This document shows, in pieces, positions 7,558 through 35,899 of a stretch of 64,000 nucleotides of DNA. Under the pieces are notes generated by a model. The model was not told the origin of the DNA and made no database searches. It was given only the letters and a program-made list of their open reading frames with translations. The position numbers were made by a program, and so were the translations under genes. The stretch covers positions 4,280,001-4,344,000 of the forward strand of contig OZ076409.1 of NCBI GenBank assembly GCA_964187785.1, written 5' to 3'. Position 1 is the stretch's first letter; every line of letters begins with the position of its first letter. Origin of the DNA: Amphiscolops sp. MND2022 (Eukaryota).

Positions 7558-8614
7558 TAGTTCTGGGTGACAAATATTTTCAAACATGCTCGGGAACAGT
7601 TATTTAAAAGACACCCGCTGACCAACAGGACACATTCCGTTCAAACTGTTTTAGCAACGAAATAATTGTGAGGATCAAAAGCAGCATGTACACTATGAAA
7701 CTGCATAAACGTTTGAAGGGAAAAAAGTTTTGACGGATTTTGATTCATGTTGCCATCCCAACTTTGAAGGAAACACTCGGTTCAAGAACCACTAAACACA
7801 GGTTTGATTATTTTCTTGTCACACTATGTGGATTCCTAACAGTACCCAACCAACGAAATTTTCATAGGTCTGCAAGGAAACTCACTAACAAGTTCAATAA
7901 AATGTCAAACACTTTCATATTTGGTGTCATTTCGCAGTTTTTTTTTCTACAACGAAAACTTCACACTGTTCCTTCACACAGTACTGCATAGCTAGTTATT
8001 TTGCCCGGAGCCTAATGAATAAAACATGACAATAAGTGTCAAAAAGTATTTCAACGTTTTTAATGACAATTTCGTGCGATTTTCATATGAAAAACTACCC
8101 GATTGCTACATTATTCAGTTCCGCATATTTTATAAAAGCAAAACCTTAGAATACTGTGATAAAGTGGGGATAATTCGTCAGTCGAACGTTCTAAAGTTTT
8201 AGACACTTTTAACAATTTTCTGAAAGAAGTTGCCGGTATCCCTTTTTCAATTATTTTGCCTTCAAAGGGTCCCACCTTCAAGTTTTTCTGATACTTTGCA
8301 GCAAACTAAAGTGCCAAAAAGCCCAAAGGGTCTTCCCTTGTAAGTATTTAGGCACTATGAGAGTGTTCAAAATTCTCATTTTTCACTTCTTTTCGAATTT
8401 TTTTTAATTTTCGAAAAAAAATGTCTCCAAATGGTAGTAGGTGTTGAACATTTTCATCATTATAACCTTCGAAACGCATCAAAAATTTCATACAAATCGC
8501 ATAAAACATTGAAAAAATGGGTTTCTACTGCTTTACGTCTCATTCGGCATTCGGGTCAATCTGGAGAGGTTTTGAAGCGAACCACTGCGTTTTGCCTTCA
8601 AAAGACAATACTAT

Positions 8615-9036
8615 TGTGATGCCATGATGCATGTCCTCAAAGATTCCATGAATCTGAAATAGTCTGAACTCCTAACCAAAGTGATTAGTAAATGTAATTT
8701 CATTTGAAAGCTAATTATCTTAGAAGAAACTTCACTTAACATATCCTGTAACAAGCTTCTCAGATGTATCCTGTTACTGTCACTTTCTTATTGATGTAAA
8801 TGAATTGAATCTACCCTAGTTGATAAGATATATCTACTTGGAGAAATTCAGATTCTAATTCACCAAACAGTCGTGTTTTCGACTTAGAACTTAACTGAGA
8901 TCTCAGAAAGACAACACCTAGAAATAGCTAGCCAAACAGACTTGAAATAAGATGACCTCGCTGTTAAAATCTTAGACTTCTTATGTCTGTAATGAAACAT
9001 CTTAAAGAAACAACCACCACACTTTTTAACAGCTCA
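8615..9036 (+). repeat. Element A 5' LTR (422 bp)
   Basis: Direct repeat of 35107-35529; about 16 substitutions plus 1 indel by hand count (~4%). Confidence 0.95.
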
Positions 9037-9038
9037 AT

Positions 9039-9056
9039 TGGTGCGACCAAGAAAAC
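9039..9056 (+). promoter_or_regulatory. Element A primer-binding site (tRNA identity not assigned)
   Basis: TGGTGCGACC... begins 2 nt after the LTR-terminal CA. Confidence 0.65.
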
Positions 9057-9193
9057 TCTTCTTTCTCTCCCACTCATTTCACAACTCTACAATTTTTGTA
9101 CACCTTTTCTCGACTTTCTCATCAGATATCTCTTTGTTCGACACACAGTTTCTCCACCTCTCAACATCGCCTATCGCTATTAACTTCAATGTT

Positions 9194-9485
9194 GCAACCA
9201 ATTTCTACAAGAAAATGATTCGTGTTGCTATGGTTCTGACTACGTCCTTCCACGTAATTCCTGTCAGTTACAATTCTTGGTTCTGACTGCGTTTCTCCAG
9301 GTAATTCCTGTCAGTCATTTTTCTTGGTTCTGACTACGTTTCTTAGCGTAATTCCTGTCACTAAATTTTTCGTTCCAACTACCTCTGAGTGAATTCGTGT
9401 TGGCTTTCTCTTGTTCTTCCGTTCCAACTGCAGCCGAGCGATACGTGTTGGCCTTTCTACAGTGCTATCCAGCGATTCCTGCTAG
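9194..9485 (+). ncRNA. Array of at least 6 bulged stem-loops in the element A leader (candidate packaging/cis RNA element)
   Basis: Outer stems GCAAC/GTTGC, CTGAC/GTCAG (x2), TGAC/GTCA, CCAAC/GTTGG (x2), each with a conserved ATTC(C/G)T-like 3' bulge; spacing ~45 nt. Confidence 0.6.
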
Positions 9486-9773
9486 TAAAATTTGTTTGGT
9501 TCTAGCCACTTGGATCAACTTTGAAGTTGGCACACCTATATAACATATATCTTTTACATAATACCATTCAAACACTTCTTTTCCTCTCTCTCCTGTAGTA
9601 CAAATCCCATACAAAACTCTTTCAAAACTACTTCACGGATCCAAATACAAAACAATTAAAAATATATAACAAATCAATCAAATAATTCTTTATATAACTT
9701 TCATTTTTTACACATTTATATAACAGATTTTATACAAACTTCTTGACATACTCCTATTAGAACTTCATTGTAC

Positions 9774-12700
9774 ATGCCGTCTTCAGTAGACATTGTAGTT
9801 AAGCTCATTGTCTGCTTTTGGTTCTTTGTTGCTATCGTTGCCGGTCTTGCACTTTTTCTTGACAGATTTTTAATATCTTTTATACCAAAATTTTTAGGTA
9901 TAACTTTTCCTTTCTATGTTAACAAGTATAGTACTACCTCTTTTTGGACTGCTTAGTATTTACTACACCTTTTATACGCTTATACAACATATACAAAACC
10001 CATTTCTTCTTTTCCTGAGTACAGTACGTACAATTTTCTTACAAGTTGTATTCATAGACCAAATCTTACCATATAACTCACAATTCAATACAAAATATCT
10101 TCTTTTGCAATACATCTATCCTTTATGGCAATCTTATTATACTAACTAAATTTTGCAACAAATAATGCTTCCTCCTCCATTTACACTAACTACAGAAAAA
10201 AGACAAAATCGGTCTCTCATGCAAGATGTAACACCTTTTCTAAATAACATCATCATTCAGTACACAAATCCACTTCCATTTGAAACAGAACCACATACAT
10301 TACATACCATTCCATTGGCACGAGAACATTGTGACTCTTATCTTTATTACATTTGATATCAAAAACTTAAAATAACATCATCACAAACCCCTTTTCAAGT
10401 TATTTTTAATCCAGTTAAAGGAATAAGTCCTGGAACATACTATAGAACCATCCATCCACAAAATTTTACACTTTCTATACAAGATAATTTCAGCACATAC
10501 ATGCAAAAACCTATTGAGTTCAATGAGAACCAAGATACACCACTTTACCGTTCTTCTCACCTAGAAGATCTAAAACAAATCTGAATATTTCGAGGTCCCT
10601 GATCTTGACACAAGAATTCAAAGACATGATAACCCTCATTACTGGCTACACCAAGATATCTTACAGATAAAAAATTTCCAATACAAGTTCTTTAACAACA
10701 TTATTCTTACGGATGACACTATTCCTCAAGTCAAAGATTTTACTCATTTTATATTAAAGTTTTTCCAATTTAACTATCAACTACTCTGGGAACAACAAGA
10801 TCAACAAGCTTACATTAACTTTCCTCAAATACTAACACAAACAGGACTCTTACCATACATTATAAAAAAATGAAAATAAACATTTACAATACAGAGATCT
10901 TACCTCTTTTAATATTACATATTTTCAACAAATAAATTCAGACCACACCTTTTTAGTTGAACATTCTGAAACTCAGATAATCGACATTTTATTACATCTG
11001 ATATTTCTCCAGAAACAACTCCTGAAGAACAAATCTCCAATGTTGAACTTCCATATACTAGACAACATTCAGTACAATCAGAACAAGAAGACCTTGATAC
11101 CCTTTTCCTAAATCCAGAACCTCACCAAGAACACCCACTTTAACCACCATTACCACAAGTTTCCGATATACAACAAGCGAATCCTTCTGAAACTGCTACA
11201 ATCCAGAATACATCAGAATTTTCTGAAGAAACTATGCAAAATACACAAAGTTCTACAATAACTGACGACTCAAATCTTATACAAATTCCTACAATACAAT
11301 TCCACAATATCACCCAAAATGAAATTAATTACCAAAACCATGACAATACTTTAAGTACAACTCAAGACAATATCTCTGTTTTATCTACATCACATACTAA
11401 TATTACACAACCATCTCAGACACAAGCATCGCCTCGTCCAAATTATGACCCACCTTCTATTCCACCCCAATTCCCAACTCAGATTCAAACTCGTAAATCT
11501 CCTCAACAAAGCTTTTCAAATACACAACATACTACACAAAACACCAATACAGTACATTTTCAAACACCAACCCCACCATTACCTACTGAAATACAAACTT
11601 CAACCTATACTCCAGCTCAAACTAATCCAAACTGTACAAAATGCACAACCTAGTTTAAATATAAACACCATTCATTCGAATCCACCCTTTAAGTACACCA
11701 CTTCCAGACATCTTTCTCGACCTCCATTACAAACTATATTAGGTAATCCATTATCGTACAATCTTACAAGTACAAATCCAAGTCATACACAACAATCTCA
11801 GACAAATAATAACAGACCCATTCATTAAATACTTTCCCTTCTCAACACACGTCTAATACAATCACACCTACATTACAAACTTCCCAATTTCGAATACAAA
11901 ATCCTCCTTCAACAACAATTAGAACTAACCCTCACTTTCACAACACTTCTACCACTTCTTTTACTAACTTTTCAAATAACCCTACATACAACACAGTACC
12001 ACCACCTACCATATCTCACAATTCTATTTCACACCCAACGTATATCAACTCTCTACTTCAATATCAGAACCTATTAAACCTTTTGATGGACTAGATCATA
12101 ATTATACACCTGAAGAATACTTACAACATATTGAGGCACGTGTTACATTTTCTTTTGGTTTACAACCTACATCAGAACATGAATATAAATTTTGGCACGC
12201 TCGTTGCATGGCTTTCATACAATGCTTTTTACCAGGTACAGCACTCAGTTGGTACATCCGTTTAAATGACTCCATGAACACGATTGGCACGCTTTTGTAC
12301 AAGTTTTCAAAAAACAATTCTCTTCACAAACGAACGTTTACTATGCTCAAGTTGAAGCCCTTAACTTATCCAAGAAAGATAATGAAACAGTACGCCATTT
12401 TGCACTCAAAGTTCAACAGCTAGACGAAAAAGGCTGGTGTAATGAGAACGCATCCACTATTTACCTCAAATGTAATGAAATTTTTACAAAATGACTTCCT
12501 AAAAACCTTAAAGACTTTGCAAACAAAAGACAAGTAAAACACACTTCTACTGATTTAGAACCTTCAATTCCCTTTCATACAATAGTAAAACTTGTTGATG
12601 CTGAAGATATTGCAAACGACAAAATTAGAACACATGATCTTGCACTTGAAACTAACAATATTACAAAATAGTTGAACACTCAAAGCCTTGAACCTTCATC

Positions 12701-13394
12701 TCAAGAACAACTTATGTTTACTCAACCCAGAGACCCAAATAACAAGAATAAACCTGCATATAAAAAATATTGTTCATACTGGCATAAACCAAATCATTCC
12801 ATCTCTGCTTGTTTCAAAAAACAACGAGACGATGAAGACAAACGAGATGAATATGCTCGATCAAAATCTCCTCAAAAATCATTTGTACAGTACATTCGTT
12901 CTCCTTCCAATGATAGAACGAAACACTATGATAATCGATACCGAAGTCGACGTACCTCACGAGACAATTCTTACAATAAAAACTATTCACAAAATCAATA
13001 CCGTTCTACATCTAGAGATAGATTTAGTTATGACAAAAGTACTACTGCTCCACAATACTCTAGATCACGATATGATACTTACAAACGTGACTCCCGGTCT
13101 TACCGCTCTCCATACAGATCCTCGTACAGATCTCCTTACCGACACAACTCTCGCCCTAGATACAGATCACGCTCCTATTCCAGAGACAACAAATTCACAA
13201 AATATACAAATTCATACAGACCACCTTCAAGACCAAAAAAATCTAGATTTTCTAGATCTCGCTCACACTCCAATTCTAGAAACAAAATTAATTTGAAACA
13301 ACAACAAAACCAATCTGACCCTATAAAATTTGAAGTACACATGTATCACCCAACAGCAATGGCAAACGCTGTGACGCCTACAAGTTGGTTTTGA
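9774..13394 (+). pseudogene. gag: Element A gag, copy 1 (fragmented; 5' boundary uncertain)
   Basis: S/T/P/Q-rich linker; capsid-like IKPFDGLDHNYTPEEYLQHIEARV...GTALSWY; degenerate knuckle CSYWHKPNHSISAC; RS/RY-rich tail; multiple stops and frameshifts. Confidence 0.75.
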
Positions 13395-16300
13395 ACTCTA
13401 TATGTTCATACACCATCAAGTATAACACAAAGAGACAACCCATCTAGATTAGAAATTGCATTCCTTCTAGATAGCTTCCATCTCTGTATTAAATTACCCA
13501 AAATACATAACTCTTAGAAAACTCTTAGATATAAGACCAAATCACTCTTCTGACGTAGGACCAACTCAAAATTCAAAAACGTTAACCGTTGCAAATCAAA
13601 CCGATGTTCCTATATTACATTTTGCCAATATAATTTTGAACACCACTATTGATGAAAATTCTCGTTACTTTTCAGTACCTTTTGCAGTAGCTGATATCAA
13701 ATACAATATTCTTCGTACACACTTCTTTGAAGACAATATACAAAACATAAACATACAAGACTTTACACTCGAATTCAAATACCAATCAAAAACACACCCA
13801 AACTAAGCAAAATTCACAACACTCCTATCTAAAGACTACCCATATTTCTCATACAATTATAGAATTAATTCAAAAACTCAAATACGTCTAAAACCCAAGT
13901 CTTCTAAAATTGCACACTTTCCAATAAAAAATTATCATCATCTTCATTTTACAACTACACCACAAAATCACTTCTTCCCTTCAGTACCACATACCTATTT
14001 TCCTACTAAATTTCGTACAAATTTCAATTTTATTGAAGTATTCACAGATGACAACCCAGACATTTGTGCAACTATTATCCAGAACACCTCAAAACATGTT
14101 GCAACACTACCTACAGGACACATTGGATTTATCGAAGTTCCAATCACGAATGAAAAACCGAAATTCTTCCAAGTTATCGATATTAACACCTTAATACATA
14201 ATGTTACTCATACATACCATCCTGAAATCACTGAACCAGGTCCACCAACTAACTATATTGTACACTACGACAATCCTACAACTCCTTCTCCTCAATTTTC
14301 AATACATCAAATTTATATGACAAATTCTGACATACCAAATCAAACTTCTCCTTTATACAACGTTCAACCTACTTCTCACACTTCTGGAAAACGCATTTTT
14401 CCTTCTTTACCATACACTTCTGAAAATCTGAAAGTTATCAACAAATTTAACTTCCAATTTTCTGACTTTACAGACACTGAATACATTGCCCTTTGCAATA
14501 TGTTACTCAAATACAAAACATGTTATGCAACTCATAAAAACGATGTTGGAAAAATTTCAACTCCCTTTCATATTAGACTTAAACCCAATGCTCAACTTAT
14601 GACACAACGTCCTTCTAAAGTCCCTATTCACTACAGAGACAAACTTAATGTACTTCTCAGAGAACTAGAAAAATATAACAATATAAAACAAAATGGTTCC
14701 TCTCCACAAGATAAACCTGTTTATGGTACAACTTATTTAAACCCTTTCATTATAATCCCCGAGGAAGATACTTTAAAATGTGTATTAGACGCTCGACATC
14801 TTAACTCCAATACAGAACAATCTGATGAATCTTGGCCTATTGAATCTCTCGCTCCAGCACGCGCAAACAAAAACTTTTTTATCATAATTGTTCCGGAATG
14901 TAGGTGTACGAATTACTCTACTGAATAAAACTCTGGAATCTGAGACACGTTGCACTATTTGCTTTCTACATAATTGGCCCTAATGAGGCCTGGCATAAGT
15001 GGCAATTATTTGGCCCCATTAACTTGCCAAGACACAAAAATGCGGAAAGTAAGATTTCAACATCAAAGGAAGCTAAGGCAGTCGACATCAAAGGGGAATG
15101 AATTCAGTGCACGTGTCTCGGTTTCCGAGATTTCGTGTCCTGATTTCCGCAAAACGCTCAGAAAAAGCTTGCAGATGCACTGTAATGAAGTACAAATCTG
15201 CAATTGACCTTTTGTATGCCTATGCACATACACCTCTTGATGAAGACACTATTAAACTTACCAGTTTCTCCTCAGGAGATAAACTCTTCGCTTTCATCCG
15301 TGGCTTTTATGGTCTCAAAGGACTTCCAAACTTCTTTACAAAACAAATGTCTACCTTCTTTAAAACTCTTATAGAACAAGGTTTTGCCCTTGTCTACATT
15401 GATGATATATTACTTTTATCCGACTCTGAAGAACACATGTTCCAACTCATAGAACAATTATACATTATCAGTACAAAAAACAATCTTACACTAGCCCCTG
15501 AAAAATCATTTTTCATGCTCCTTAAAATCAAATTTCTTGCACATGAAATTGGTTTCAATACATTTAAACCAATTCATTCGAAAATTGCAGCTATTCATGA
15601 AATCCCTTCTCCAACTGTCAAAGGTGCTCTAATGATTTTCATTGGCGCACTCAACTTTTACACCAAATTCATCGAAAAACTACATATTAACCTTAAACCG
15701 TTTTACGATCTTTTACATGAGAACACTCCTTGGAAATGGACAGATGAACACGAAAGTCTTCTTCAAAAACTCAAAATGTCTCTCACTTCTGAAACAGAAC
15801 TTACAATACCAAATACAAAACATCCATTTTTTATTACAGTTGATGCTTCACTTATTGGACTAGGCGCTGTCTTATTCTAATTAAATGAACAAAACAAAAT
15901 GAAAGATTTATCGTACAACTCTCGTATACTCAATCCACAAGAACAAAAACTTTCAACACTCGACCGAGAACTTCTTGGTATAGTACATGCTCTCCAAATC
16001 TATGAGTTTCTTGTCATCGGTTCTCCTCATCCAATACATATTTTTACTGATCACAAACCTTTATTACATTGTTTTACAAAAAAAGTAACCTTAGTCCTCG
16101 TTTTTACAGAGCTCAAATGCAATTAACGAAATTTTCTAAACTCAAAATAATTCACACTCCTGGAAAAAACCTCTTTGTTGCCGATATGTTAAGTCGCTCT
16201 TTTACAAAAGCTGAACTACAATTGAATTAACTAACACACAAACTACTTCCACCACAAATTGATTTTGCACTTTCACAAAATGGCACTCTTAAACCTGTAC

Positions 16301-18687
16301 ATTACTTAATTAAACACGAAGAAATCTTACCTCATCAAAAACATGACTCCCACCCAATTCTCGCTGATTATGGTTCAGATCAATTCTCTATTCGTATCAA
16401 TGACAAAGGAAATGACATTGTTGTCAAACTATTACAATCCTTCTCATTCAAATCCATGATTCCTGTTCAAACAAAGTTCAAAACACCTATAAAAAAGAGG
16501 AATAAAACCCTTCATCAACAATCTCTCTTACTCAATGATACTGATATTACAAGTGATGACGAAGATTATATATATACAAGAATTCCAAAACCTGACTCTT
16601 CCTTCTTACATGACACAACATTACAAACAGAAAACTATTCTACTCTCAACAAGTCGATATCTAACACCCCACAAAAATCTGTTTTTGCAACAAATGTACA
16701 AACAATTTTACCATCTGTTACACATTGTCCACAGATTATACCTTTCTATGATACATCATTTTTCAAGTACAAAAATTGTTTTCAAGATTTCTTTCTTCCA
16801 GATGACTACTCATTAGACATAACAACACTTCAACAACAACAATCCCAAGACCCGGTTCTTAGAACTGTTTATCCTTGGATCGTTAAAAATGAAACACCTG
16901 AAACTCTAACACCACTCATCACTGATACTCCTTTTCTACATGCTTATTACGAACGATTTTCACAACTTTTTGTAGATAACTCTACAAATCCTATTAGCCT
17001 CTATAATAAACACCCTGCTGTTCAAAATCAATCTTCTACTCCAGATTTTGTACGCGTTACTATTCGAATATGTCTTCCTTTCAGACTATTCAAAACTGTT
17101 TTTTAACAAACTTCATGAACACTCTCATACAGGTATCAAAATTACAAATAATACATTCGCACAATATTACTATATTCCATTTGTTGAAAAATGGCTTTCC
17201 AATTCCATACATGACTGTGTTGAATGTCAACGCAATAAACACTTCAACATGAAAATCCAAACTGCACCTACACAATCATTTTCAGAACATGCTCCATCTT
17301 TCAACGAACGCACTTCAATGGACACTACAGGACCTATTGTTCCTCCTTCACACAACAAATCTTATATACATGTCATCATTGACGCTTTCAGCCACTTTGT
17401 TGTTACAGTACCCATCAAAGCAAACAACGCAAAAACTGCAATCAAAACTCTCCTACACCATTGGATTATTAAATTTGGACCACCCATATATCATGTTACT
17501 GATCGAGGATCTGAAAATGGAAACAAAGAAATGGCACAACTTTGTACACTTATGGGAATTCGTCATTCTCCCGGAACAGCCTACTCTCCTTGGACAAATG
17601 GCCTTGTCGAAGTACAGAACAGAAATCTTGGTACACATTTACGATTGTTCTTACATGATATACCTAAAGATTGGGCATTCCAAGTACATAAGTACGCTTA
17701 TGCACATAGTCCACAACCACTTTCAGAACTCAATAATTCTCCTCATGAAATTGTTTTTCACACAAGACCCAGAATACCCCTTACTTTCGATTTAAATCTT
17801 AATAGAGACAACTCTAAAACATGTATTTCACGCTATTGCTCTCAACTCCCAGAACACTCACATTATGACAAACCCGATCTTAATCCATTTTTTATAGAAC
17901 ACTTTCAAAATCCATTCCACAATGGTTTCTCGCTGTAGAAACTGCTATGTTACAAAGATATTCTACAGTATATGAAAACACTCTACGAAAAATCAATTCA
18001 CACGCATACATTACAAAAACCTATCACGAAGGTAAACCACTTCCTATTGGCACCTTTGTTTTAAAACGAAATTTCACACACGTACATTTTTCTGACAAAC
18101 TAAAACCCCTTCGGTCTGGACCATACAAAATTTTTGATAGACTGTCAGACGATACATATGAACTACTTGCACAAGATAGCTCTACAATACATGTTCATCA
18201 AAATCATTTGATTCCGTACTATCCAAAAGAACCAATTTTATACCCACATTTGCGTAGTTTCATGCGCTTTTCAGACACAACCCAATTCCAAATTCCACAA
18301 CCTACCAAATACGCAAACAGTGCTTCTTCCCCTTTTAATTCAGCCGAATCCTTATCAGACGAAGACTCAAAAACATTTATGACACCATCCACTACAGAAG
18401 ATTCTTCTCAAACATTTACGACACCATTCAGTACTTCCAATCAAAATACACCATCTATAACATCCAATCACAAGTCTTTAACTCTCCCAACCAATGACAA
18501 CTCTTTATTCAAGGATATAATTAATACCCCTCACACTAAATTCCCTAGTGACAGATCAAGACACCCTTCGCATAATCAAACAGATTCACTTCTTCCTCTA
18601 ATTGACAGAACTACGAAAACTACTTATAAACTACGACAACAACCCAAATTAGATTATAGACTTTTTATAACACCCTCGAAACTGTAA
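13395..18687 (+). pseudogene. pol: Element A pol, copy 1 (PR, RT, RNase H, integrase)
   Basis: Protease remnant FLLDS..SISVL; RT GFYGL and YIDD; RNase H TVDAS, ELLGIVHAL, FTDHKPL; integrase HEHSH..CVEC, IIDAFS, TDRG, VEVQNR and a GPY motif. Stops, frameshifts and a 314-bp insertion. Confidence 0.92.
14874..15187. mobile_element. 314-bp foreign insertion in RT of pol copy 1
   Basis: Absent from copy 2 (GCAAACAAAAAGTAC at ~23247); apparent AA duplication; internal inverted repeat GAGACACG(T)TGCACT / AGTGCACGTGTCTC. Confidence 0.8.
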
Positions 18688-18759
18688 CAACATCATTCTT
18701 TCTACTGGCTCCCTCAAAACTAGTCACTACAGCTGAATGAAATATAATCACTAACAAGT

Positions 18760-20012
18760 TATCTCAACGATAACCTGTTGAAAACCCATTTCAAGAATCC
18801 TGGATTCTTCTTCTGATATATCTCCATCAGCTCCAAGTATTCTTTCTACTCCTGAATCATCAATATCAAACACTACAATTTCTCGTAATGTATCTCCTAC
18901 TACTCCTTCTAAAAGACCAAGATCATACGTTTCTGAAACATCTTCTTCATCTCTCTTTCATAAACCACCTATAACTGAAATCCCTATTACCACTCGTACT
19001 CAACAAACTCCTATTAATACTCCTATAGTACACATACCAAACCCTGACTGTTGAACAATACGTAAATTACAAACATCCTACAGCTATCAAAACTGTTAGA
19101 CTTCAACATCAGTTTAATCTTGTACACAATCCTGACACTGAATATACACGACTACCTCCACTGAAATTACCATCAGAACTCAGCAATACTTCTTCAAAAC
19201 TCTATCCTACTCTAAAACCTCTTCGAAAACCTTCTATATCACTATCAAATCTCTTAGACAGTACATCAGAATATACTTCATCAAAAGACACTACAAGCTC
19301 ACTTTTGTACCACAACATAGATATAATCTTCGAGACCTTCCTTCACGCAGAGTTGGTACAGATACTTCCAACCTTAATCTATCTGCTCTTTCTAGCATTT
19401 CTGCTTTACGACTTGTACGACAACACGCACAACCGTTGTCTTCTGAAACAAATTCCTCCGAATTTACACCTTCTTCGTATTTTACATCTGGTTTTGAAAT
19501 CGCCTCTCTACTTTCTTCAGACGCTCAGACTGCATTCCTTTCTGGAAATCTTTTCTCCGAAGTTATAATACCTACTCCTGTTCCAGCACATAGTAGACTG
19601 CCTGAATATTATACTGCAGATCAATCTAGACCTCCAACTCCAAATTTTGCTGACTATCCACTTCGAGTCGATGGAGTAACCATCAACGACCCACAGAACG
19701 ACCCTCGATTTCCTATCCTTGCAGAACGGTTTATCACAAATAACGATCTTTCATCTCAAAAAAAAAGAAACAGACCTAAACCGCCTTCAGACACTTAATC
19801 TAGAACTTAAATTTGAAGTCAAAGGTAAATTCCAAGGTTTAAACCGCCATCCAAAATTTCACGTCTCAAAAATAGAACGTAAAACCTCTCCTGCTCCTTT
19901 TGAAGTAGTACACATTGAATTTGAACGAGACCTCAATATACCTACTATTACATATGGCAAAATCACATTCTGTCCCCCATACTCAGGTCTTAAATATACT
20001 ACCTCCTTTTAA
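18760..20012 (+). pseudogene. Element A accessory ORF X between pol and env, copy 1 (unknown function; start approximate)
   Basis: Frameshift-linked ORF pieces: S/T/P-rich N-part, then PTPNFADYPLRVDG...ELKFEVKGKFQG...FCPPYSGLKYTTSF; overlaps the env start. Confidence 0.5.
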
Positions 20013-20371
20013 ACTCTACACAACCTTTTATATAACAACTCTCATACTACATTTACACTTATTCAACTTCACCTCTTCTATACCCATAACACCCTCTGAT
20101 ACAAAAAACTATCTCCCATCGGATGATCCAAAAATTACAAACCTTATGGTTTCTCATTATGACTGTGCAAAACAACATAATTTGAGACAATTTAACTTAC
20201 TTAATGTGAAACAATGCACTGAAGCTCCTTCCGACATTAAACACGCAACTGTTAAAGCCCATGTATATGTCCGAGCAAAGGCTAAACGCATTAAAGCTTT
20301 TAAATGTGTTGCTTATGCAAAAAAAGAAAGAAAGATTTGCTTTCAAGGTTCCGTAAAATACCGTCGTGTTG
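19954..20371 (+). pseudogene. env: Element A env 5' fragment, truncated at the duplication junction
   Basis: Near-identical to 28051-28468 (signal-like segment, HYDC...KQC...FKC...KIC); switches to gag sequence at ~20372. Confidence 0.85.
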
Positions 20372-20372
20372 T

Positions 20373-21776
20373 ACAGTACCACCATCTACAATATCTCTAA
20401 ATATCATTTCTCAACCGACATATATCAACTCTTCTACTTCAATATCTGATCCGATAAAACCTTTTGATAGGTTAGATCATAATTATACACCTGAAGAATA
20501 CTTACAACATATTGAGGCACGTGTTACATTTTCTTTAGGTTTACAACCTACAACAGAACAAGAAAATAAATTTTGGCACGCCCGTCGCATGGCTTTTATA
20601 CAGTGTTCTTTAACAGGCACAGCTCTCAGTTGGTACCTTCGTTTAAATGACACTTATAAACAAGATTGGCACGCTTTTGTACAAGTTTTCAAAAAATAAT
20701 TCTCTTCACAAAAGAACGCTTACTATGCTCAAGTTGAAGCCCTTAACTTATCCAAGAAAGATAATGAAACAGTACGCCATTTTGCACTCAAAGTTCAACA
20801 GCTAGACCAAAAAGGCTGGTGTAATGAGAATGCATCCGCTACTAACCTCAAATATAATGAAATTTTTACAAAATGACTTCCTAAAAACCTTAAAGACTTT
20901 GCTAACAAAAGACAAGTAAAACACACTTCTACTGATTTAGAACCTTCAATTCCCTTTCATACGTTAGTAAAACTTGTTGACGCTGAAGATATTGCAAACG
21001 ACAAAATTAGAACACATGATCTTGCACTTGAAACTAACAATATTACAAAATAGTTGAACACTCAAAGCCTTGAACCTTCATCTCAAGAACAACTTATGTT
21101 TACTCAACCCAGAGACCCAAATAACAAGAATAAACCTGCATATAAAAAATATTGTTCATACTGGCATAAACCAAATCATTCCATCTCTGCTTGTTTCAAA
21201 AAACAACGAGACGATGAAGACAAACGAGATGAATATGCTCGATCAAAATCTCCTCAAAAATCATTTGTACAGTACATTCGTTCTCCTTCCAATGATAGAA
21301 CGAAACACTATGATAATCGATACCGAAGTCGACGTACCTCACTAGACAATTCTTCCAATAAAAACTATTCACAAAATCAATACCGTTCTACATCTAGAGA
21401 TAGATTTAGTTATGACAAAAGTACTACTGCTCCACAATACTCTAGATCACGATATGATACTTACAAACGTGACTCCCGGTCTTACCGCTCTCCATACAGA
21501 TCCTCGTACAGATCTCCTTACCGACACAACTCTCGCCCTAGATACAGATCACGCTCCTATTCCAGAGACAACAAATTCACAAAATATACAAATTCATACA
21601 GACCACCTTGAAGACCAAAAAAATCTAGATTTTCTAGATCTCGCTCACACTCCAATTCTAGAAACAAAATTAATTTGAAACAACAACAAAACCAATCTGA
21701 CCCTATAAAATTTGAAGTACACATGTATCACCCAACAGCAATGGCAAACGCTGTGACGCCTACAAGTTGGTTTTGA
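20373..21776 (+). pseudogene. gag: Element A gag, copy 2 (3' part)
   Basis: Same capsid-like, knuckle and RS-rich segments as copy 1. Confidence 0.85.
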
Positions 21777-24700
21777 ACTCTATATGTTCATACACCATCA
21801 AGTATAACACAAAGAGACAACCCATCTAGATTAGAAATTGCATTCCTTCTAGATAGCTTCCATCTCTGTATTAAATTACCCAAAATACATAACTCTTAGA
21901 AAACTCTTAGATATAAGACCAAATCACTCTTCTGACGTAGGACCAACTCAAAATTCAAAAACGTTAACCGTTGCAAATCAAACCGATGTTCCTATATTAC
22001 ATTTTGCCAATATAATTTTGAACACCACTATTGATGAAAATTCTCGTTACTTTTCAGTACCTTTTGCAGTAGCTGATATCAAATACAATATTCTTGGTAC
22101 ACACTTCTTTGAAGACAATATACAAAACATAAACATACAAGACTTTACACTCGAATTCAAATACCAATCAAAAACACACCCAAACTATGCAAAATTCAAA
22201 ACACTCCTATCTAAAGACTACCCATATTTCTCATACAATTATAGAATTAATTCAAAAACTCAATTACGTCTAAAACCCAAGTCTTCTAAAATTGCACACT
22301 TTCCAATAAAAAATTATCATCTTAATTTTACAACTACACCACAAAATAACTTCTTCCCTTCAGTACCACATACCTATTTTGCTACTAAAATTCGTACAAA
22401 TTTCAATTTTATTGAAGTATTCACAGATGACAAACCAGACATTTGTGCAACTATTATCCAGAACACCTCAAAACATGTTGCAACACTACCTACAGGACAT
22501 ATTGGATATATCGAAGTTCCAATCACAAATGAAAAACCAAAATTCTTCCAAGTTATCGATATTAAAACCTTAATACATAATGTTACTCATACATACCATC
22601 CTGAAATCACTGAACCATGTCCACCAACTAACTATATTGTACACTACGACAATCCTACAACTCCTTCTCCTCAATTTTCATTACATCAAATTTATATGAC
22701 AAACTCTGACATACCAAATCAAACTTCTCCTTTATACAACGTTCAACCTACTTCTCACACTTCTGAAAAACGCATTTTTCCTTCTTTACCATACACTTCG
22801 GAAAATCTGAAAGTTATCAACAAATTTAACTTCCAATTTTCTGACCTTACAGACACTGAATACATTACCCTTTGCAATATTTTCTCAAAAACAAAACATG
22901 TTATGCAACTCATAAAAACGATGTTGGAAAAATTTCAACTCCCTTTCGTATTAGACTTAAACCCAATGCTCAACTTATGACACAACGTCCTTCTAAAGTC
23001 CCTATTCACTACAGAGACAAACTTAATGCACTTCTCAAAGAACTAGAAAATTATAACATTATAAAACAAATTGGTTCCTCTCCACAAGAAACACCTGTTT
23101 ATTGTACAACTTATTTGAACCCTCCTATTATAATCCACAAGGGAGACACTATAAAATGTGTATTAGATGCTCGACATCTTAACTCAAATACAGAACAATC
23201 CGATCAATCTTGGCCTATCGAAGCTCTCGCTCCACAATTAGCACGCGCAAACAAAAAGTACAAATCTGCAATTGACCATTTGTATGCCTATGCACATACA
23301 CCTCTTGATGAAGACACTATTAAACTTACCAGTTTCTCCTCAGGAAATAAACTCTTCGCTTTCATCCGTGGCTTTTATGGTCTCAATGGACTTCCAAACT
23401 TCTTTACAAAACAAATGTCTACCTTCTTTAAAAGTCTTATAGAACAAGGTTTTGCCCTTGTCTACATTGATGATATATTATTTTTATTCGACTCTGAAGA
23501 ACACATGTTCCAACTCATAGAACAATTACACATTATCAGTACAAAAAACAATCTTGCACTAGCCCCTGAAAAATCATTTTTCATGCTCCTTAAAATCAAA
23601 TTTCTTGCACATGAAATTGGTTACAATACATTTAAACCAATTCATTCGAAAATTGCAGCTCTTCATAAAATCCCTTCTCCAACTGTCAAAGTTGCTCTAA
23701 TGATTTTCATTGGCGCACTCAACTTTTACACCAAATTCATCGAAAAACTACATATTAACCTTAAACCGTTTTACGATCTTTTACATGAGAACACTCCTTG
23801 GAAATGGACAGATGAACACGAAAGTCTTCTTCAAAAACTCAAAATGTCTCCCACTTCTGGAACAGAACTTACAATACCAAATACAAAACATCAATTTTTT
23901 ATTACAGTTGATGCTTCACTTATTGGACTAGGCGCTGTCTTATTCTAATTAAATGATCAAAACAAAATGAAAGATTTATCGTACAACTCTCGTATACTCA
24001 ATCCACAAGAACAAAAACTTTCAACACTCGACCGAGAACTTCTTGGTATAGTACATGCTCTCCAAATCTATGAATTTCTTGTCATCGGTTCTCCTCATCC
24101 AATACATATTTTTACTGATCACAAACCTTTATTACATTGTTTTACAAAAAAAGTAACCTTAGTCCTAGTTTTTACAGAACTCAAATGCAATTAACGAAAT
24201 TTTCTAAACTCAAAATAAATCACACTCCTGGAAAAAACCTCTCTGTTGCCGATATGTTAAGTCGCTCTTTTACAAAAGCTGAACTACAATTGAATTAACT
24301 AACACACAAACTACTTCCACCACAAATTGATTTTGCACTTCTACAAAATGGCACTCCTAAACCTGTACATTACTTAATTAAACACGAAGAAATCTTACCT
24401 TACCAAAAACATGACTCCCACCTAATTCTCGCTGATTATGGTTCAGATCATTTCTCTATTCGTATCAATGACAAAGGAAATGACATTGTTGTCAAACCTT
24501 TACAATCCTTCTCATTCAAATCCATGACTCCTGTTCAAACAAAGTTCAAAACACCTATAAAAAAGAACAATAAAACCCTTTATCAACAATCTCTCTTACT
24601 CAATGATACTGATATTACAAGTGATGACGAAGATTATATATATACAAGAATTCGAAAACCTGACTCTTCCTTCTTACATGACACCACATTACAAACAGAA

Positions 24701-26788
24701 AACTATTCTACTCTCAAAAAGTCGATATCTAACACCCCATAAAAATCTGTTTCTGCAATAAATGTGCAAACAATTTTACCATCTCTTACACATTGTCCAC
24801 AGATTATACCTTTCTATGATACATCATTTTTCAAGTACAAAAACTATTTTCAAGATTCCTTTCTCCCAGATGACTACTCATTAGACATAACAACACTTCA
24901 ACAACAACAATCCCAAGACCCGGTTCTTAGAACTGTTTATCCTTGGATCGTTAAAAATGAAAAACCTGAAACTCTAACACCACTCATCACTGATACTCCT
25001 TTTCTACATGCTTATTACGAAAGATTTTCACAACTTTTTGTAGATGACTCTACAAATCTTATTAGCCTCTATAATAAACACCCTACTGGTCAAAATCAAT
25101 CTTCTACTCCAGATTTTGTACGCGGTACTATTCGAATATGTTTTCCTTTCAGACTATTCAAAACTGTTTTTACAAACTTCATGAACACTCTCATACAGGT
25201 ATCAAAATTACATATAATACATTCGCACAATATTACTATATTCCATTTGTTGAAAAATGGCTTTCCATTTTCATACATGACGGTGTTGAATGTCAACGCA
25301 ATAAACACTTCAACATGAAAATCCAAACTGTACCTACACAATCATTTTCAGAACATGCTCCATGTTTCAACTATCGAACTTCAGTGGACACTAAAGGACC
25401 TATTATTCCTCCTTCACACAACAAATCTTATATACATGTCATCATTGACGCTTTCAGTCACTTTGTTGTTACAGTACCCATCGAAGCAAACAACGCAAAA
25501 ACTGCAATCAAAACTCTCCTACACCATTGGATTATTAAATTTGGACCACCCATATATCATGTTACTGATCGAGGATCAGAATATGTAAACAAAAAATGGC
25601 ACAACTTTGTACACTTATGGGAATTCGTCATTCTCCCGGAACAGCCTACTCTCCTTGGACAAATGGCCTCGTCGAAGTACAGAACAGAACTCTTGGTACA
25701 CATTTACGAATGTTTGATACACCGTATGATACACCTACGTAGATACATTTACGTATGATACACCTAAAGATTGGGCATTCCAAGTCCATAAGTACGCTTA
25801 TGCACATAGTTCACAACCACTTTCAGAACTCAATATTTCTCCTCATGAAATTGTTTTTCACACAAGACCCAGAATACCTCTTACTTTCGCTTTAAATCTT
25901 GATAGAGACAACTCTAAAACATGTATTTCACGCTATTGCTCTCAACTTCCAGAACACTCACGTTATGACGAACCCGATCTTAATCCATTTTTTAATAGAA
26001 CACTTTCAAAACCCATTCCACAATGGTTTCTCGCTGTAGAAACTGCTATGTTACAAATATATTCTACAGTATATGAAAACACTCTACGAAAAATCAATTC
26101 ACACGCATACATTACAAAAACCTATCACGAAGGTAAACCACTTCCTCTTGGCACCTTTGTTTTAAAACGAAATTTCACACACGTACATTTTTCTGACAAA
26201 CTAAAACCCCTTCGGATTGGACCATACAAAATTTTTGATAGACTGTCAGACGTTACATATGAACTACTTGCACAAGATAGCTCTACAATACATGTCCATC
26301 AAAATCATTTGATTCCGTACTATCCAAAAGAACCACTTTTATACCCACATTTGCGTAGTTTCATGCGTTTTTCAGACATAACACAATTCCAAATTCCACA
26401 ACCTACCAAATACGCAAACAGTGCTTCTTCCCCTTTTAATTCAGCCGAATCCTTATCAGACGAAGACTCAAAAACATTTATGACACCATCCACTACATAA
26501 GATTCTTCTCAAACATTTACGACACCATTCAGTACTTCCAATCAAAATACACCATCTATAACATCCAATCACAAGTCTTTAACTCCCCCAACCAATGACA
26601 ACTCTTTATACAAGGATATAATTAATACCCCTCACACTAATATCCCTAGTGACAGATCAAGACACCCTTCGCATCATCAAACAGATTCACTTCCTCCTCT
26701 AATTGACAGAACTACGAAAACTACTTATAAACTACGACAACAACCCAAATTGGATTATAGACTTTTTATAACACCCTCGAAACTGTAA
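21777..26788 (+). pseudogene. pol: Element A pol, copy 2
   Basis: RT ORF 22872-23948 (GFYGL, YIDD), RNase H, integrase core and GPY; several stops and frameshifts. Confidence 0.92.
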
Positions 26789-26859
26789 CCTCATCATTCT
26801 TTCTACTGGCTCCCTCAAAACTAGTCACTACAGCTGAATGAAAGATAATCACTAACAAG

Positions 26860-28109
26860 TTATCTCAACGATAACCTGTTGAAAACCCATTTCAAGAATC
26901 CTGGATTCTTCTTTTGATATATCTCCATCAGCTCCAAGTATTCCTTCTACTCCTGAATCATCAATATCAAACACTACAATTTCTCGTAATGTAACTCCTA
27001 CTACTCCTTCTAAAAGACCAAGATCATACGTTTCTGAAACATCTTCTTCATCTCTTTCATAAACCACCTATAACTGAAATCCCTATTACCACTCGTACTC
27101 AACAAACTCCTATTAATACTCCTATAGTACACATACCAAACCCTGACTGTTGAACAATACGTAAATTACAAACATCCTACAGCTATCAAAACTGTTAGAC
27201 TTCAACATCAGTTTAATCTTGTACACATTCCTGACACTGAATATACACGACTACCTCCACTGAAATTACCATCAGAACTCAGCAATACTTCTTCAAAACT
27301 CTATCCTACTCTAAAACCTCTTCGAAAACCTTCTATATCACTATCAAATCTCTTAGACAGTACATCAGAATATACTCCATCAAAAGACACTACAAGCTCA
27401 CTTTTGTACCACAACATAGATATAATCTTCGAGACCTTCCTTCACGCAGACTTAGTACAGATACTTCCAACCTTAATCTATCTGCTCATTCTAGCATTTC
27501 TGCTTTACGACTTGTACGACAACACGCACAACCGTTGTCTTCTGAAACAAATTCCTCCGAATTTATACCTTCTTCGTATGTTACATCTGGTTTTGAAACC
27601 GCCTCTCTACTTTCTTCAGACGCTCAGACTGCATTCCTTTCTGGAAATCTTTTCTCCAAAGTTATAATACCTACTCCTGTTCCTGCACATATAAGACTAC
27701 CTGAATATTATTTTGCAGATCAATCTAGACCTCCAACTCCAAATTTTGCTGACTATCCGCTTCGAGTCGATGGAATAACCATTAACGACCCACAGAACGA
27801 CCCTCGATTTCCTATCCTTGCAGAACGCTTTATCACAAATAACGATCTTTTATCTCAAAAAAAGAAACAGACCTAAACCGCCTTCAGACACCTAATCTAG
27901 AACTTAAACTTGATGTCAAAGTTAAATTCCAAGGTTTAAATCCCCATCCAATATTTCACGTCTCAAAAATAGAACGTAAAACCTCTCCTGCTCCTTTTGA
28001 AGTAGTACACATTGAATTTGAACGAGACCTCAATATGCCTACTATTACATATGGTAAAATCACATTCTGTAACCCATACTCAGGTCTTAAATATACTACC
28101 TCCTTTTAA
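26860..28109 (+). pseudogene. Element A accessory ORF X, copy 2 (start approximate)
   Basis: Duplicate of 18760-20012. Confidence 0.5.
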
Positions 28110-30762
28110 ACTCTACACAACCTTTTATATAACAACTCTCATACTACATTTACACTTATTCAACTTCACCTCTTCTATACCCATAACACCCTCTGATACA
28201 GAAAACTATCTCCCATCGGAAGATCCAAAAATTACAAACCTTATGGTTTTTCATTATGACTGTGCAAAACAACATAATTTGAGACAATTTTACTTACTTA
28301 ATGTGAAACAATGCACTGAAGCTCCTTCCGACATTAAACACGCAAGTGTTAAAGCCCGTGTATATGTCCGCGCAAATGCTAAACGCATTAAAGCTTTTAA
28401 ATGTGTTGCTTATGCAAAAAAAGAAAGAAAGATTTGCTTTCAAGGTTCCGTAAAATACGGTCGTGTTGATAGAACAGTATGGAATCATAATACATTACCA
28501 CTTCCTGTTACTCTTGATCCATTAGAATGTAAAAACATTATAAAATATCTAATGGTACAAATGATAAAATATTTAACAACCTTCAATACAATGAAACTTT
28601 TACACTCTTAGAAGATCATTACTTTCAAGAACGATTAGAACAATATCAAACTCCTTTCACTGTATACCAATTGAACAAAATGTCTACAGGTACCTTTACC
28701 TTTATGCCTGCAGACAAAAACTGGATATACCACCCTACTCGAAACCCTTACTATAACTGTCCCGCTCATCATCAATTCGAAGTCAATTTAGTTAGTCGGC
28801 GATTAGAAATTTCTGGTGTAGAACTTACGTATGATGATACATCTAATGATATGATAATAGATGGACATACATTACCCTGCTATTTTTCAGATGGTTTTTG
28901 CAAACCCACAACGAAAACTCCTTTTACCCTTGTTTGGTTCCATGATGATTACTGCTTAGTACTTACACTACAAGACTTTATTGGACGTATGACTAAAATC
29001 GAAGATAGATATTGGATTGAAACTTATTCCTTTGTACATTCTCCACACTCAATAAAACCCAAAACAACTTCTGGTATTAAAGGTACAGAACACCCATATG
29101 TTTATGCTCCTCATACACAACATCTTAATAATCCAAGTCTTTCACGTTTTGAAGTTTTTCCTGCAGCACAAACTTTTGTGGTAAACCAGACCCACTTCAT
29201 TCTACACAATATTCAGACCTTTTTGTTACATACACTGATGGTTTCAATATGCATACACAACCCAATCCTCACTCTAGGTATGATGAATATATTTCTGGCA
29301 AAATAGTATTGGACACATCAAATAACAAATTCATATTCCCTGCATTAAATGTTCCAAAAAACTTCGCTACCATTGACTATGATGCACATGTAAATACAAA
29401 AATTGACTACACTATTAATCACGTTTTCGTTCAATGAGAGTACAAGAACTTAATACTCTTCATACAATATGTGAACTAGAACGAAATCAACTTCTTACAA
29501 TACTCGCAATGTCAGTACAAAACCCTCATTTTGCTGGTTTCCTTTTAACAGGTAATCGAAGCAACTTTTTGTACGTCGAAGGCTCCACCGCCTGGCTCTA
29601 TGACTGTCCTCATTTCTTATCTCCTTTATACAAAGCCGATCGATGCTTTGACCGTATACCTATACACTTTAAAGATACTCTAATGTACGTTGATCCTATT
29701 ACAAGACAAACCTATGACAATGCTACTCCAATTACATGTGATAATAATCCACGAAATATGATTGAACTAGATCCTGACTCAGATGATCAAGATTTTTATA
29801 TTCTTGCACCTGAACCTATTAAACGCAAACCTCCACTAATGTTTACACCTTCTCAAATTAAAACTACAATACGCCCTACCACTTTTACAGCCCAAGATGC
29901 TGGTAAATATTCCAATGCTGAACTTGATGAATTCTGGAACCGCATCTTTTTTTCTAAACATTCTGACTCTACACTTCAATTACTTGAAAAAGCCCTTAGT
30001 TATTCTTTCATTTCATCTAATACTCCTGATTATGGTGCAGATTCCCCTCATGGTACTGGTAATCCCCACAATACATTACGTATTGGACTACATGATAAAC
30101 TTTTAAACTCAACTCCTCTTTTTACACCTACATGGTTTTCAAATGCTTTTATTGCACTTTTTGGATACCCTTGTTATATTCTCACACAATGTGGTATTTA
30201 TTTTTCTACATTCCTTTTTGTACAAGCTACTCTTACACTCATCGTCAAACTTTACAAAACAAAATCTATTAAATATCATCTAAAAAATAATATTACTTGG
30301 TTTAGTTCTATAGCACATGGTTTCTTTAACATTCTTACAGCACAAATGGTCAACGACCTTCATGATACTCAAAATTAAAAACACAAAAATCCCTTTTTTA
30401 AATCCAAATTTCTCGACCATCTCTCTGACACTTCAACAATTCTAATTAACCATTCTACCGGTATTACTTCCCGTCCACCTTTCTATACTAAACGTCCTAA
30501 TAAACTCCAGATACCAAAATTTGAATTTTTTCCGAAAAGACATCACTTTTCTCATCCGAAAATTACCTTTCAACCATCTACGCTTCCTTCTTCTGAACAA
30601 CATCCCTCACTTCCTAATTATTCCTCTACAAACTCACATCCGAATGACAATATAGCCACTCAACATGACACCTTAATTAACACTTCTGTCACGTCTAATA
30701 CGGATACACCTATTAAAATCTATTCACGGGTAAATTATCAATTTCCTCCGCCATTTTCTTGA
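28051..30762 (+). pseudogene. env: Element A envelope glycoprotein, class III fusogen-like (chuvirus G / herpesvirus gB-like), ~900 codons, frameshifted
   Basis: Hydrophobic signal-like N-terminus; HYDC..LLNVKQC..FKC..KIC..LEC; ICELERNQLLTILAMSVQNP..AGFLL..VEGSTAWLYDC..DRCFDRIPI..YVDPITR..TPITC; C-terminal TM region (FIALFG..GIYFSTFLFVQATLTLIV). After a TAA at 30376 a 127-codon in-frame tail runs to 30762. Confidence 0.8.
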
Positions 30763-30775
30763 ACTCCCTCTCAGC

Positions 30776-32453
30776 TTGCTTGACAACTCTCTTCTAGAAT
30801 ACTTCACTCCTCTTCATCAGTTTCAGCTCTTGAAATTTTCACTACTTCGCACCTCTTCTCTCCAAAACGAAAATTCTTTCAAAATTGCTACTCCTGCAAC
30901 TCTAGAAACTCTTGTAGAAATTCACGTACCGCAAATAAACAGCACACCCATCATCCTCGCAGTTCTCAAAAGCTCTCCTTCAAAAGTTGACAAATCAACT
31001 CGTAAGTGTATTTTATAGTACTTGTATTTTACAGTACTTTAAAGTGATAGGCCTCTTGGAATAGATATCACTGTGATTGTTGATGTTTTTAACACAATGA
31101 CACAAGCACAAGTCAATATACAAAATCAACTTGAACAAGCTACAGCAGATCTCACAACGAGACGTCTTCTAAATGATTCTCCTGTTCTATATACTGACAC
31201 TTCTGAACCAATACCTACCACTTCTCTCGAACAAAAGGAACAAGAAAAAATTGAACATTAGACATCGAAAGTTTCAACTCCACTCAATAATTATGATCAT
31301 ACACACGCATCACCACCTCCTCCGAAAAAAACAATATGAAATAATGAAAGATCTTGTCTTTCTTTCGTCACCAATCTATCCTCCTTTCATATCTGCAAAT
31401 ACTTCTCCTTCTACAAATCGTGATGATCATTTGATTTCACTTCTTTCTCACGATGATTTCACCTTTAAAGCACAACTAACTTCTCTCTACATGCATCCTA
31501 CAGACTATTCATTTCGCTTTTATGACGAAAATCAAGACTTCTTTACATCTATTGCTTCAAAAATCATGGGTCCATACCAAAACTGGCTTGACAATGGAGT
31601 CAAAATCTTTCCTCTACAATTTAATTTTCTTCGCCCATCCATATACGATTCAAAAACAGACAAATCTGATCCATCCTTTCTCTCTGTATCGCAAAAAGCT
31701 ACTCATCATCAAACATACACTAATTTTCTACAGCACACAAAACCAAAGAATTACATTTTCGTTAAATACAAATTTACATCACCCTTCACAATGACAAACA
31801 TCTACACTCTTGATCACTCCTGTAGAACAGGATATCTTAGAAACTATGATCCTATAAAACAGTACTACTGTTTACTGCCATACAATAACACTTCACGCCC
31901 ACTTATTGTACCTCAAGAATACCTTATACATTTTGATGATTTTTTGTTGCCTTGCAACGTTCCTACACAAATAGTAAAACCTCTCGCTGTTATCAAACAT
32001 CTTGTCTCTTCTCCACTAGGTGACAAAGATAAAACATATTATACAGCTCTCTACAAACAGACATACTCATATAACGAACTTCTATTTATTGCAACCAAAA
32101 CCATTTCGTTTATGGTACAAGCTGAACAGAAATCAGAACACAAAGTATCTTCATCACCAATCAAAAATACCTCTGACAAACTTTCCTCTGTCTTGAACAA
32201 TCGAACACTTCGCGATATAACAAACCTCTTAGACCCATATAAACAAACACCTTCTGAAACACCCATCATCACACTCACACATATACTACACTGCTACGAC
32301 AGAACACACAAACTCTTACAGACACTTGATCTAGACTCTCAACGCATTACTCAATCATCCCAAGCATTTCAATCTGCTTTGGAATCCATAACTACTCTTT
32401 TTAATTCAACTAATCTTCATTATATTCTTCTACAGGTAATACAAAATTCTTAA
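30776..32453 (+). pseudogene. Element A accessory ORF Y downstream of env (unknown function)
   Basis: 426-codon open frame 31173-32453 plus upstream frame pieces 30776-31261; codon style matches the element's other ORFs. Confidence 0.6.
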
Positions 32454-32591: not shown

Positions 32592-33010
32592 ACTGGTCTT
32601 CTCACTCTGTTGAACTGAACTGGACTCAATTCACTTGCAATGAACTGAACTGGACTCAATTCACTTGCCAATTTCAAACTATTCACTTGCCGCAAATGTC
32701 AAATTTTACTCTAATCCAATAACTTTAATATAATTTTAATCTAACGTATACTCTTATTTATTGCTAATTCATAATGTAACCTTAATAGTGCATAATCTTA
32801 CCTAATCTCAATCTTGTATAATCATATTATAGTTACCCACCTCACAAACTCACCTCACATAGTTGCTAAACCCTCACAAAATTTCGTTTATCATTATCTT
32901 TGTAACCGCAAAATAGTTTCCCAAATTATATCCCCATTGTTATGTTTATAATACATCTATTTAACAATTCTATAATCCACATCTTTTACAGCACACAAGT
33001 CCTACGTATA
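32592..33010 (+). repeat. Internal 419-bp direct repeat, copy 1
   Basis: Near-identical to 33972-34390; contains a tandem 30-mer TGAACTGAACTGGACTCAATTCACTTGC. Confidence 0.9.
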
Positions 33011-33971: not shown

Positions 33972-34390
33972 ACTGGTCTTCTCACTCTGCTGAACTGAAC
34001 TGGACTCAATTCACTTGCATGGAACTGAACTGGACTCAATTCACTTGCCAATTTCAAACTTTTCACTTGCCGCAAATGTCAAATTTTACTCTAATCCAAT
34101 AACTTTAATAGAACTTTAATCTAACGTATACTCTTATTTATTGCTAATTCATAATGTAATCTTAATAGTGCATAATCTTACTTAGTCTCAATCTCGTATA
34201 ATCATATTATAGTTACCCACCTCACAAACTCACCTCACAAAGTTGCTAAACCCTCACAAAATTTCGTCTATCATTATCTTTGTAACCGCAAAAAATTTTC
34301 TCAAACTATATCCCCATTGTTATGTGTAAAATACATCTATTTAACAATTCTATAATCCACATCTTTTACAGCACACAAGTCCTACGTATA
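33972..34390 (+). repeat. Internal 419-bp direct repeat, copy 2
   Basis: Near-identical to 32592-33010. Confidence 0.9.
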
Positions 34391-35529: not shown

Positions 35530-35899
35530 CTATATAGCTAGTTTGTTCGCATGTGAAAGTTTTGAACCTCTTGTCTCACGAAAAACTGCAAAAAGAGCAA
35601 TGAATTGCTGAAAAAAACTACATAACCTGAAAAACTTCGACTTAAGGGGTGAATTCAAGTGATATTTCTGAGTAAAAATTGCAATCATCTTTTGTTGAAT
35701 ATGTATAAAGTTCTAATCTACGCACTCTACTCATAATACAAACAAATAACCAGAACAAGGTTTCCTTGGTTCTACGAAACACGTTTTCCGGACTGAAAAC
35801 ATCAAAAAACGCAAAGTCACAAAACTGAAACATTTGTGAAGGAGCATATTGCACTTCTTAGTTTCGGTATTTGAGAAATTGGTTCGAAAATCGCAGCTG

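Follow-up and report, generated by a model that had tools for sequence, protein, structure and literature searches.

The window analysed here, a 64,000-nt stretch of contig OZ076409.1 from Amphiscolops sp. MND2022, contains an env-bearing LTR retroelement of 26.9 kb (element A, 8615-35529; ~18 kb minus an internal duplication), whose leader of ~1.1 kb carries an array of small bulged hairpins (Table 1). The element shows the features of Ty3/Gypsy elements, i.e., TG...CA LTRs, a 4-bp TSD and gag followed by RT-RNase H-IN, and the assignment to this group is by features and domain order. Pfam matches were obtained for RT, RNase H, integrase and a Monjiviricetes-type fusion protein, and the identity between the LTRs was calculated over 425 columns. 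A tandem duplication of ~8.1-8.4 kb (11993-20371 and 20373-28468; 96-97% identical) spans most of gag-pol and the start of env. In its relatives, Gag-Pol is a single ORF of 2624-2691 aa, the start of which maps to position 10165 of the window. The corresponding protein clusters have 1183, 493 and 285 members, all of the listed members being from ENA, and judged by these sizes the family seems to comprise many hundreds of copies. The relatives include a subfamily with ~55% Gag-Pol identity. Outside the clade of element A, the nearest distinct full-length proteins are 35-39% identical.

Element A resembles the env-bearing Ty3/Gypsy elements (errantiviruses, and Anakin with a chuvirus-type env) in its LTRs, 4-bp TSD, RT-RNase H-IN order and Monjiviricetes-type fusion protein, but it is far larger, with a 2,600-aa Gag-Pol and extra ORFs. 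Its PBS string, searched as written, was not found in the seven supplementary files of an errantivirus survey (PMC13524379). Identity with Troyka was ruled out, since Troyka is described as having CG ends and 3-bp duplications (PMC12440569), in contrast to the TG...CA ends and 4-bp TSD of element A. The accessory ORF has no known family and no atlas match, and its predicted model (pLDDT 34) is unusable. The 77-aa hydrophobic ORF before Gag (9916-10149) is 75-80 aa long in most of 120 relatives among the matches listed, with 77-95% identity, and possibly encodes a small membrane protein.

Table 1. Features of element A and of the hairpin array in its leader (positions in the window)
Feature	Position	Strand	Evidence
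Target-site duplication CTAT	8611-8614; second copy 35530-35533	.	sequence
5' LTR, TG...CA	8615-9036	+	blastn; 96% identity with 3' LTR
PBS-like sequence, begins TGG, 2 nt past LTR	9039-9051	+	sequence
Unit 1: UGUU flank, stem GCAAC/GUUGC, bulge AUUCGU, longer upper hairpin, one A.A mismatch	9190-9228	+	
Unit 2: GGUU flank, stem CUGAC/GUCAG, bulge AUUCCU	9232-9267	+	
Unit 3: like unit 2, with a G.U pair in the inner stem; contains the leader's best splice-donor-like site (GT at 9301)	9279-9314	+	
Unit 4: like unit 2, but the basal pair of the outer stem is a C.C mismatch	9326-9361	+	
Unit 5: CGUU flank, stem CCAAC/GUUGG, bulge AUUCGU preceded by one extra A	9371-9403	+	
Unit 6: CGUU flank, stem CCAAC/GUUGG, bulge AUACGU	9420-9451	+	
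Degenerate unit 7: 5' flank and outer-stem register lost, inner hairpin and bulge (9475-9480) kept	9457-9485	+	covariance model, 11.1 bits, E 6.2
Lone 5' half-unit: GGUU flank and a 5-mer that complements the 3' arm of unit 7	9498-9506	+	sequence
Hydrophobic upstream ORFs, one of 60 aa (at 9774) and one of 77 aa (at 9916)	9774-10149	+	
Broken Gag-Pol region: CA, PR-like, RT, RNase H, IN; internal duplication inside	10165-28468	+	
Truncated env-like copy	19909-20400	+	
Broken env-like gene	28006-30378	+	Pfam Monjiviricetes_fusion, E 4.9e-15
Accessory ORF	31173-32453	+	many relatives within the element family
3' LTR	35107-35529	+	

Several other features of the window may be recorded here. The sense strand of element A is markedly poor in G over 9001-35000 (GC skew -0.25 to -0.65; G ~7-10%), and the flanks and a second element, element B, differ in this respect. 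The stretch before the 3' LTR (35086-35106) has no polypurine tract and is pyrimidine-rich, with an AT end that mirrors the AT between the 5' LTR and the PBS; either plus-strand priming of the element is unusual or the polypurine tract has decayed. The 3' region also contains a 419-bp direct repeat (32592-33010 and 33972-34390; 96% identity), each copy of which opens with a 30-nt tandem pair, and the copies flank a short ORF region. Element B is young, with long open frames (40545-54119), a long leader and LTRs (36689-37458 and 54851-55620) that are 99.6% identical; the 520- and 1439-aa ORFs after its pol have no Pfam match, and its leader has a GAAA-tetraloop hairpin with a bulged U in two copies, at 38703-38731 and 38884-38907. 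At 2760-2975 there is a fragment like the N-terminal Gag of a related subfamily (38-42% identity), cut by a piece resembling the element B LTR, and the covariance model gave no array copy in its vicinity.

The array comprises six units (9190-9451) and a decayed seventh, which extends it to 9485. It is located ~140 nt 3' of the PBS, starting 154 nt beyond the LTR end and ending ~680 nt before the Gag ATG (10165). Each unit consists of an SGUU flank (UGUU in unit 1), a 5-nt arm with an AC end, a 12-19 nt hairpin, an AUWCSU bulge on the 3' side and the complementary arm. The preliminary description had proposed six bulged-hairpin units and a degenerate seventh, and this is borne out by scanning the window on both strands with a descriptor. 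Five units are perfect (outer stems starting at 9194, 9236, 9283, 9375 and 9424); the sixth, at 9330, has a single mismatch (CTGAC/GTCAC, giving a C.C pair). The stems GCAAC/GTTGC, CTGAC/GTCAG and CCAAC/GTTGG and the lone ATACGT bulge are also as described there. To these the present analysis adds the C.C pair of unit 4, the conserved SGUU flank, covariation between flank and bulge, and covariation in the first three pairs of the inner stem. The half-unit that follows unit 7 represents either the remnant of an eighth unit or a permuted pairing; its pairing with unit 7 is absent from the MFE fold. Units 2-4 form a 47-nt tandem repeat with 84% identity, and the best trees separate them from units 1, 5 and 6. 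The G content of the array is 18.3%, compared with 8.5% and 8.8% in the leader to either side.

Elsewhere in the window, the same loose descriptor produced five matches with perfect stems and one with a single mismatch, all scattered and none with the GTT flank. Thus, a single unit is not rare, although the cluster is. A two-unit pattern, derived from the same data, matched five times in the array and in none of 100 shuffles. A covariance model based on the seven units gave no convincing further copy in the window; its best match outside the array (34713-34768, in the 3' region of element A; 18 bits, E 0.11) is a hairpin with a long 3'-side bulge that differs in layout and bulge sequence and is probably due to chance. 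In viral contigs the one-unit DNA pattern had at least 120 matches, which were taken as chance because all of them were single. The two-unit pattern was found in no viral contig, one genome contig and three metagenome contigs, and these four showed no similarity to the window or to Gag-Pol. Protein queries identified no related loci in viral and metagenome contigs, while those against genome contigs gave none in one search and a single contig with 26% identity in another. None of ten frames over or near the array, looked up as a proxy for other copies, was present in the protein collection. Rfam returned no match at E<=10 in 9150-9560 and two chance-level matches in 8500-11000, both outside the array, and no published description of the motif or of element A was found in the literature searched, which was chiefly open-access.

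The pairing in the array has been maintained through change. In the core, i.e., the five outer and three inner pairs of the six units, 46 of 48 cells are paired and five of the eight pairs have changed on both sides, with a minimum of 14 substitutions; this count covers units 1-6 and takes the inner-stem register as set by hand from the bulge, unit 5 being shifted by 1 nt. A tree-aware neutral simulation, which models single substitutions only and not conversion, failed to reach both observed values in any of 20,000 runs under each of eight settings. With 14 random substitutions on the tree, the runs had on average 35-40 paired cells and less than one double change, and 46 paired cells alone were reached in 0.03-0.6% of them. 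A plain MAFFT alignment that includes unit 7 gave comparable results, with 91.5% of 59 cells paired versus 78.2 +/- 3.4 in shuffles (0/500) and double-sided change in six of nine pairs (9/500 shuffles), while slid registers were 24-42% paired and had no double change. RNAalifold recovered the outer stem unaided, with three of its five pairs compensated. The covariation is drawn from six related units of one decayed copy and amounts to about five independent double changes. The two core mismatches equal the ~2 that would be expected from decay after insertion, an estimate obtained from 96 stem bases at 2% each, based on the 96% LTR identity.

The unpaired core changes less often than the stems. 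The number of changes per column is 0.17 in the unpaired core, 0.88 in the stems and 2.08 in the flanks, i.e., one change in six columns of the unpaired core versus 25 in 12 ungapped flank columns, the flank rate being somewhat overstated. Together with the neutral simulation and the pair counts, this low rate of change supports the selection on RNA structure put forward in the preliminary description, which within this one copy appears well supported. The ten modelled pairs, read on the + strand, include four G.U cells and no A.C cells, which stem from about three events and may favour the sense (genomic) strand as the one on which the array would act.

The predicted stability of the array is weak. 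The folding energy of the whole array is ordinary (z = 0.37), neither strand is better than shuffles, and the energies of the + and - strands are alike; the z values of single units lie between -2.0 and +0.8. For units 1, 2, 4 and 6 the MFE structure is the two-stem fold, which is partially recovered for unit 5 and not recovered for unit 3, and in context the pairing probability of the outer stem is close to 0 for units 3, 5 and 6 and 0.0-0.74 for the others. Therefore the fold, if real, would probably need tertiary contacts or a protein, both of which are omitted from nearest-neighbour models.

One candidate for such a contact lies between the flank and the bulge. Flank position -4 and bulge base 5 read U-G, G-C, G-C, G-C, C-G and C-G in units 1-6, and the neighbouring pair is G-C in all six units, so that all 12 cells of this 2-bp helix pair. 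Among 780 column pairs, no other 2-bp helix outside both stems is stacked, is paired in all cells and shows a double change. The covariation amounts to about one swap and one wobble, with post hoc P values of 0.07, 0.03 and 0.20 under three nulls. Based on these data we infer, at slightly better than even confidence, that the SG of the flank pairs with the CS of the bulge as a 2-bp pseudoknot, in which two U would cross the 5-bp helix, which we take to be the geometry of an H-type pseudoknot.

This arrangement is reminiscent of the flaviviral class 1 xrRNAs, which are described as having a 5-bp P1 and a 2-bp PK1 with a G-C second pair, followed by a flipped U (PMC7527734); xrRNAs are also reported to occur often in tandem (PMC8374639). 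The array units share with them a 5-bp P1 (in five of the six units; 4 bp in unit 4), a 5' flank that could pair over 2 bp with the strand before the 3' arm of P1, with G-C as the second pair and one U after it, as well as a P2 of variable length and tandem copies (PMC7527734, PMC8374639). In contrast to class 1 xrRNAs, they are without a three-way junction and P3/L3, a single hairpin and a 6-nt bulge being placed on the outer stem, and they have no PK2, the complementarity between loop and downstream sequence being at most 3-4 bp at varying offsets (1-12) in all six units. No ring is evident either, and the array is in a 5' leader while xrRNAs are in the 3' UTR. Since both the three-way junction and PK2 are missing, the array is not a member of class 1. 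A composite proposal would be that the ~35-nt unit is a new minimal tertiary fold, a bulged hairpin that its own 5' flank locks through a 2-bp pseudoknot, sharing the P1/PK1 core of xrRNAs, that the array blocks 5'-to-3' decay or nucleates capsid assembly, and that element A belongs to an undescribed clade of giant env-bearing Gypsy elements. Taken as a whole this is quite unlikely; if true, the leader of an LTR retroelement would have yielded an xrRNA-like module for the first time. A narrower proposal, in which the units would form a stack of 5'-to-3' exonuclease blocks whose minimal xrRNA-like fold shields the coding RNA downstream once the transcript is decapped or sliced, is highly improbable. 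The 5-bp P1, the putative 2-bp flank pairing with its invariant G-C second pair and the single U match the class 1 P1/PK1 (PMC7527734), and tandem copies are frequent among xrRNAs (PMC8374639). However, the units have neither a three-way junction with P3 nor a consistent loop-downstream pairing, the loop length varies, and an RNA product starting past the PBS could not be reverse-transcribed.

Other known RNA elements were compared with the array. The hepadnaviral epsilon is described as having, like an array unit, a lower stem, a bulge in the middle and an upper stem with a loop, and as being the packaging signal of a reverse-transcribing element. Epsilon, however, templates protein priming in an element that lacks tRNA priming, while element A has LTRs, an integrase and a PBS-like site; moreover, the 6-nt bulge of epsilon is on the 5' arm and that of the array on the 3' arm. 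HIV RRE and TAR and the CERV of Cer1 are comparable in that element A, too, has env and accessory ORFs and a possible multivalent protein-binding RNA. TAR is at the 5' end of the RNA, inside the R region of the LTR, and RRE is within env. The preliminary description had considered the position of the array to match either a packaging signal or a multivalent, TAR/RRE-like binding site for Gag or an accessory protein; the placement between PBS and Gag fits the former, while it does not fit a TAR-like element, since the array is outside the LTR.

A number of further identities were rejected. There is no Rfam match to a ribozyme, and cleavage past the PBS would presumably destroy the genome. The bases that resemble a Pol III B-box or T-loop covary with the 3' arm. 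A UNCG tetraloop in the bulge fits three of the seven units, and the splice-donor-like site is present in one unit and thus is not a conserved feature. The loops vary and by eye have no common palindrome, as opposed to what a kissing-loop dimer signal would have. A permuted register between neighbouring units gives at most four of five pairs for the outer arms of units 1 and 2, and the stem classes are only partly orthogonal.

The function that we tentatively favour, at somewhat less than even probability, is that of a multivalent protein-docking site on the genomic RNA, putatively bound by Gag for packaging. Six modules would have arisen by tandem duplication and then diverged. In each of them, the sense (genomic) RNA would form a 5-bp helix that stacks on a variable hairpin, and the AUWCSU bulge would probably pair back with the 5' SG flank. 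The combination of freely varying stems, a fixed bulge and flank, and six-fold repetition points to a repeated recognition surface, to which the kept bulge, flank and AC/GU pairs would contribute in each of the six modules. The nucleocapsid region of Gag, with a CCHC knuckle and an RS-rich tract, might bind this surface multivalently and thereby pick out the full-length RNA around which capsids assemble. Of nine proteins examined, six have a CCHC knuckle with an RS-rich tract after it. No retroviral psi element is known to be a six-fold array of one motif, and compared with psi of RSV or the HIV-1 leader the array differs in its one motif repeated six times, its diverged stems and its probable local pseudoknot. 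Retroviral psi is reported to map to the stretch that runs from the PBS to the gag start (PMC5035971), and the array sits in the corresponding interval, between 9039-9051 and 10165. Counted against packaging are that the Gag of the window copy itself has no intact CCHC motif and that no donor-like site lies in the stretch from PBS to array, leaving exclusion of the array from a spliced env RNA hypothetical.

Several alternatives to this docking of Gag must be weighed. The modules might serve the export or stabilisation of unspliced RNA by recruiting an accessory or host protein, by analogy with RRE/CTE and with Cer1, in which CERV is reported to be required for export of the genomic RNA (PMC10309623). 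With env and accessory ORFs, the element probably needs both spliced and unspliced RNA, and because the best donor-like site is inside unit 3, most of the array could be intronic. That donor-like site is, however, restricted to a single unit, and the accessory ORF, having no family match and a model at pLDDT 34, shows no recognisable RNA-binding fold; we regard an export role as unlikely. Control of translation, by modules that recruit initiation factors or steer scanning for a Gag-Pol ORF behind a 1.1-kb leader with uORFs, is very doubtful. The family-recurrent 77-aa uORF ending 15 nt before Gag would suit such a role, but the array ends ~680 nt upstream of the Gag start, its hairpins are weak, and none of the Rfam IRES or enhancer families matches it.

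It is also conceivable that the array is no RNA signal at all. The 84% identity of the 47-nt repeat in units 2-4 and the ordinary folding energy are consistent with a tandem repeat that has diverged and in which template switching homogenised the arms, or with sites for a DNA-level factor, for which the gypsy insulator is a model. Yet template switching would erase the bulge and would not preserve G.U pairs, the arms have remained complementary although their sequences differ among the units, a relation that a DNA-binding site would not require, and neutral simulation, albeit with single substitutions only and no conversion, fails to reproduce the array. This explanation is highly unlikely.

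Packaging and export signals have been mapped in few LTR retrotransposons. A small motif of which six copies with compensatory differences occur naturally lends itself to direct testing as a 35-nt RNA. If the flank-bulge pseudoknot fails, the array would be a further case of hairpins arrayed in the leader of a retrotransposon, of interest to specialists; if it holds, the unit would represent a small RNA fold that is new and that has a link to the xrRNA core. As judged from its sequence, the array appears to be an undescribed docking signal shaped by selection, the most likely partner being the capsid protein of the element itself.
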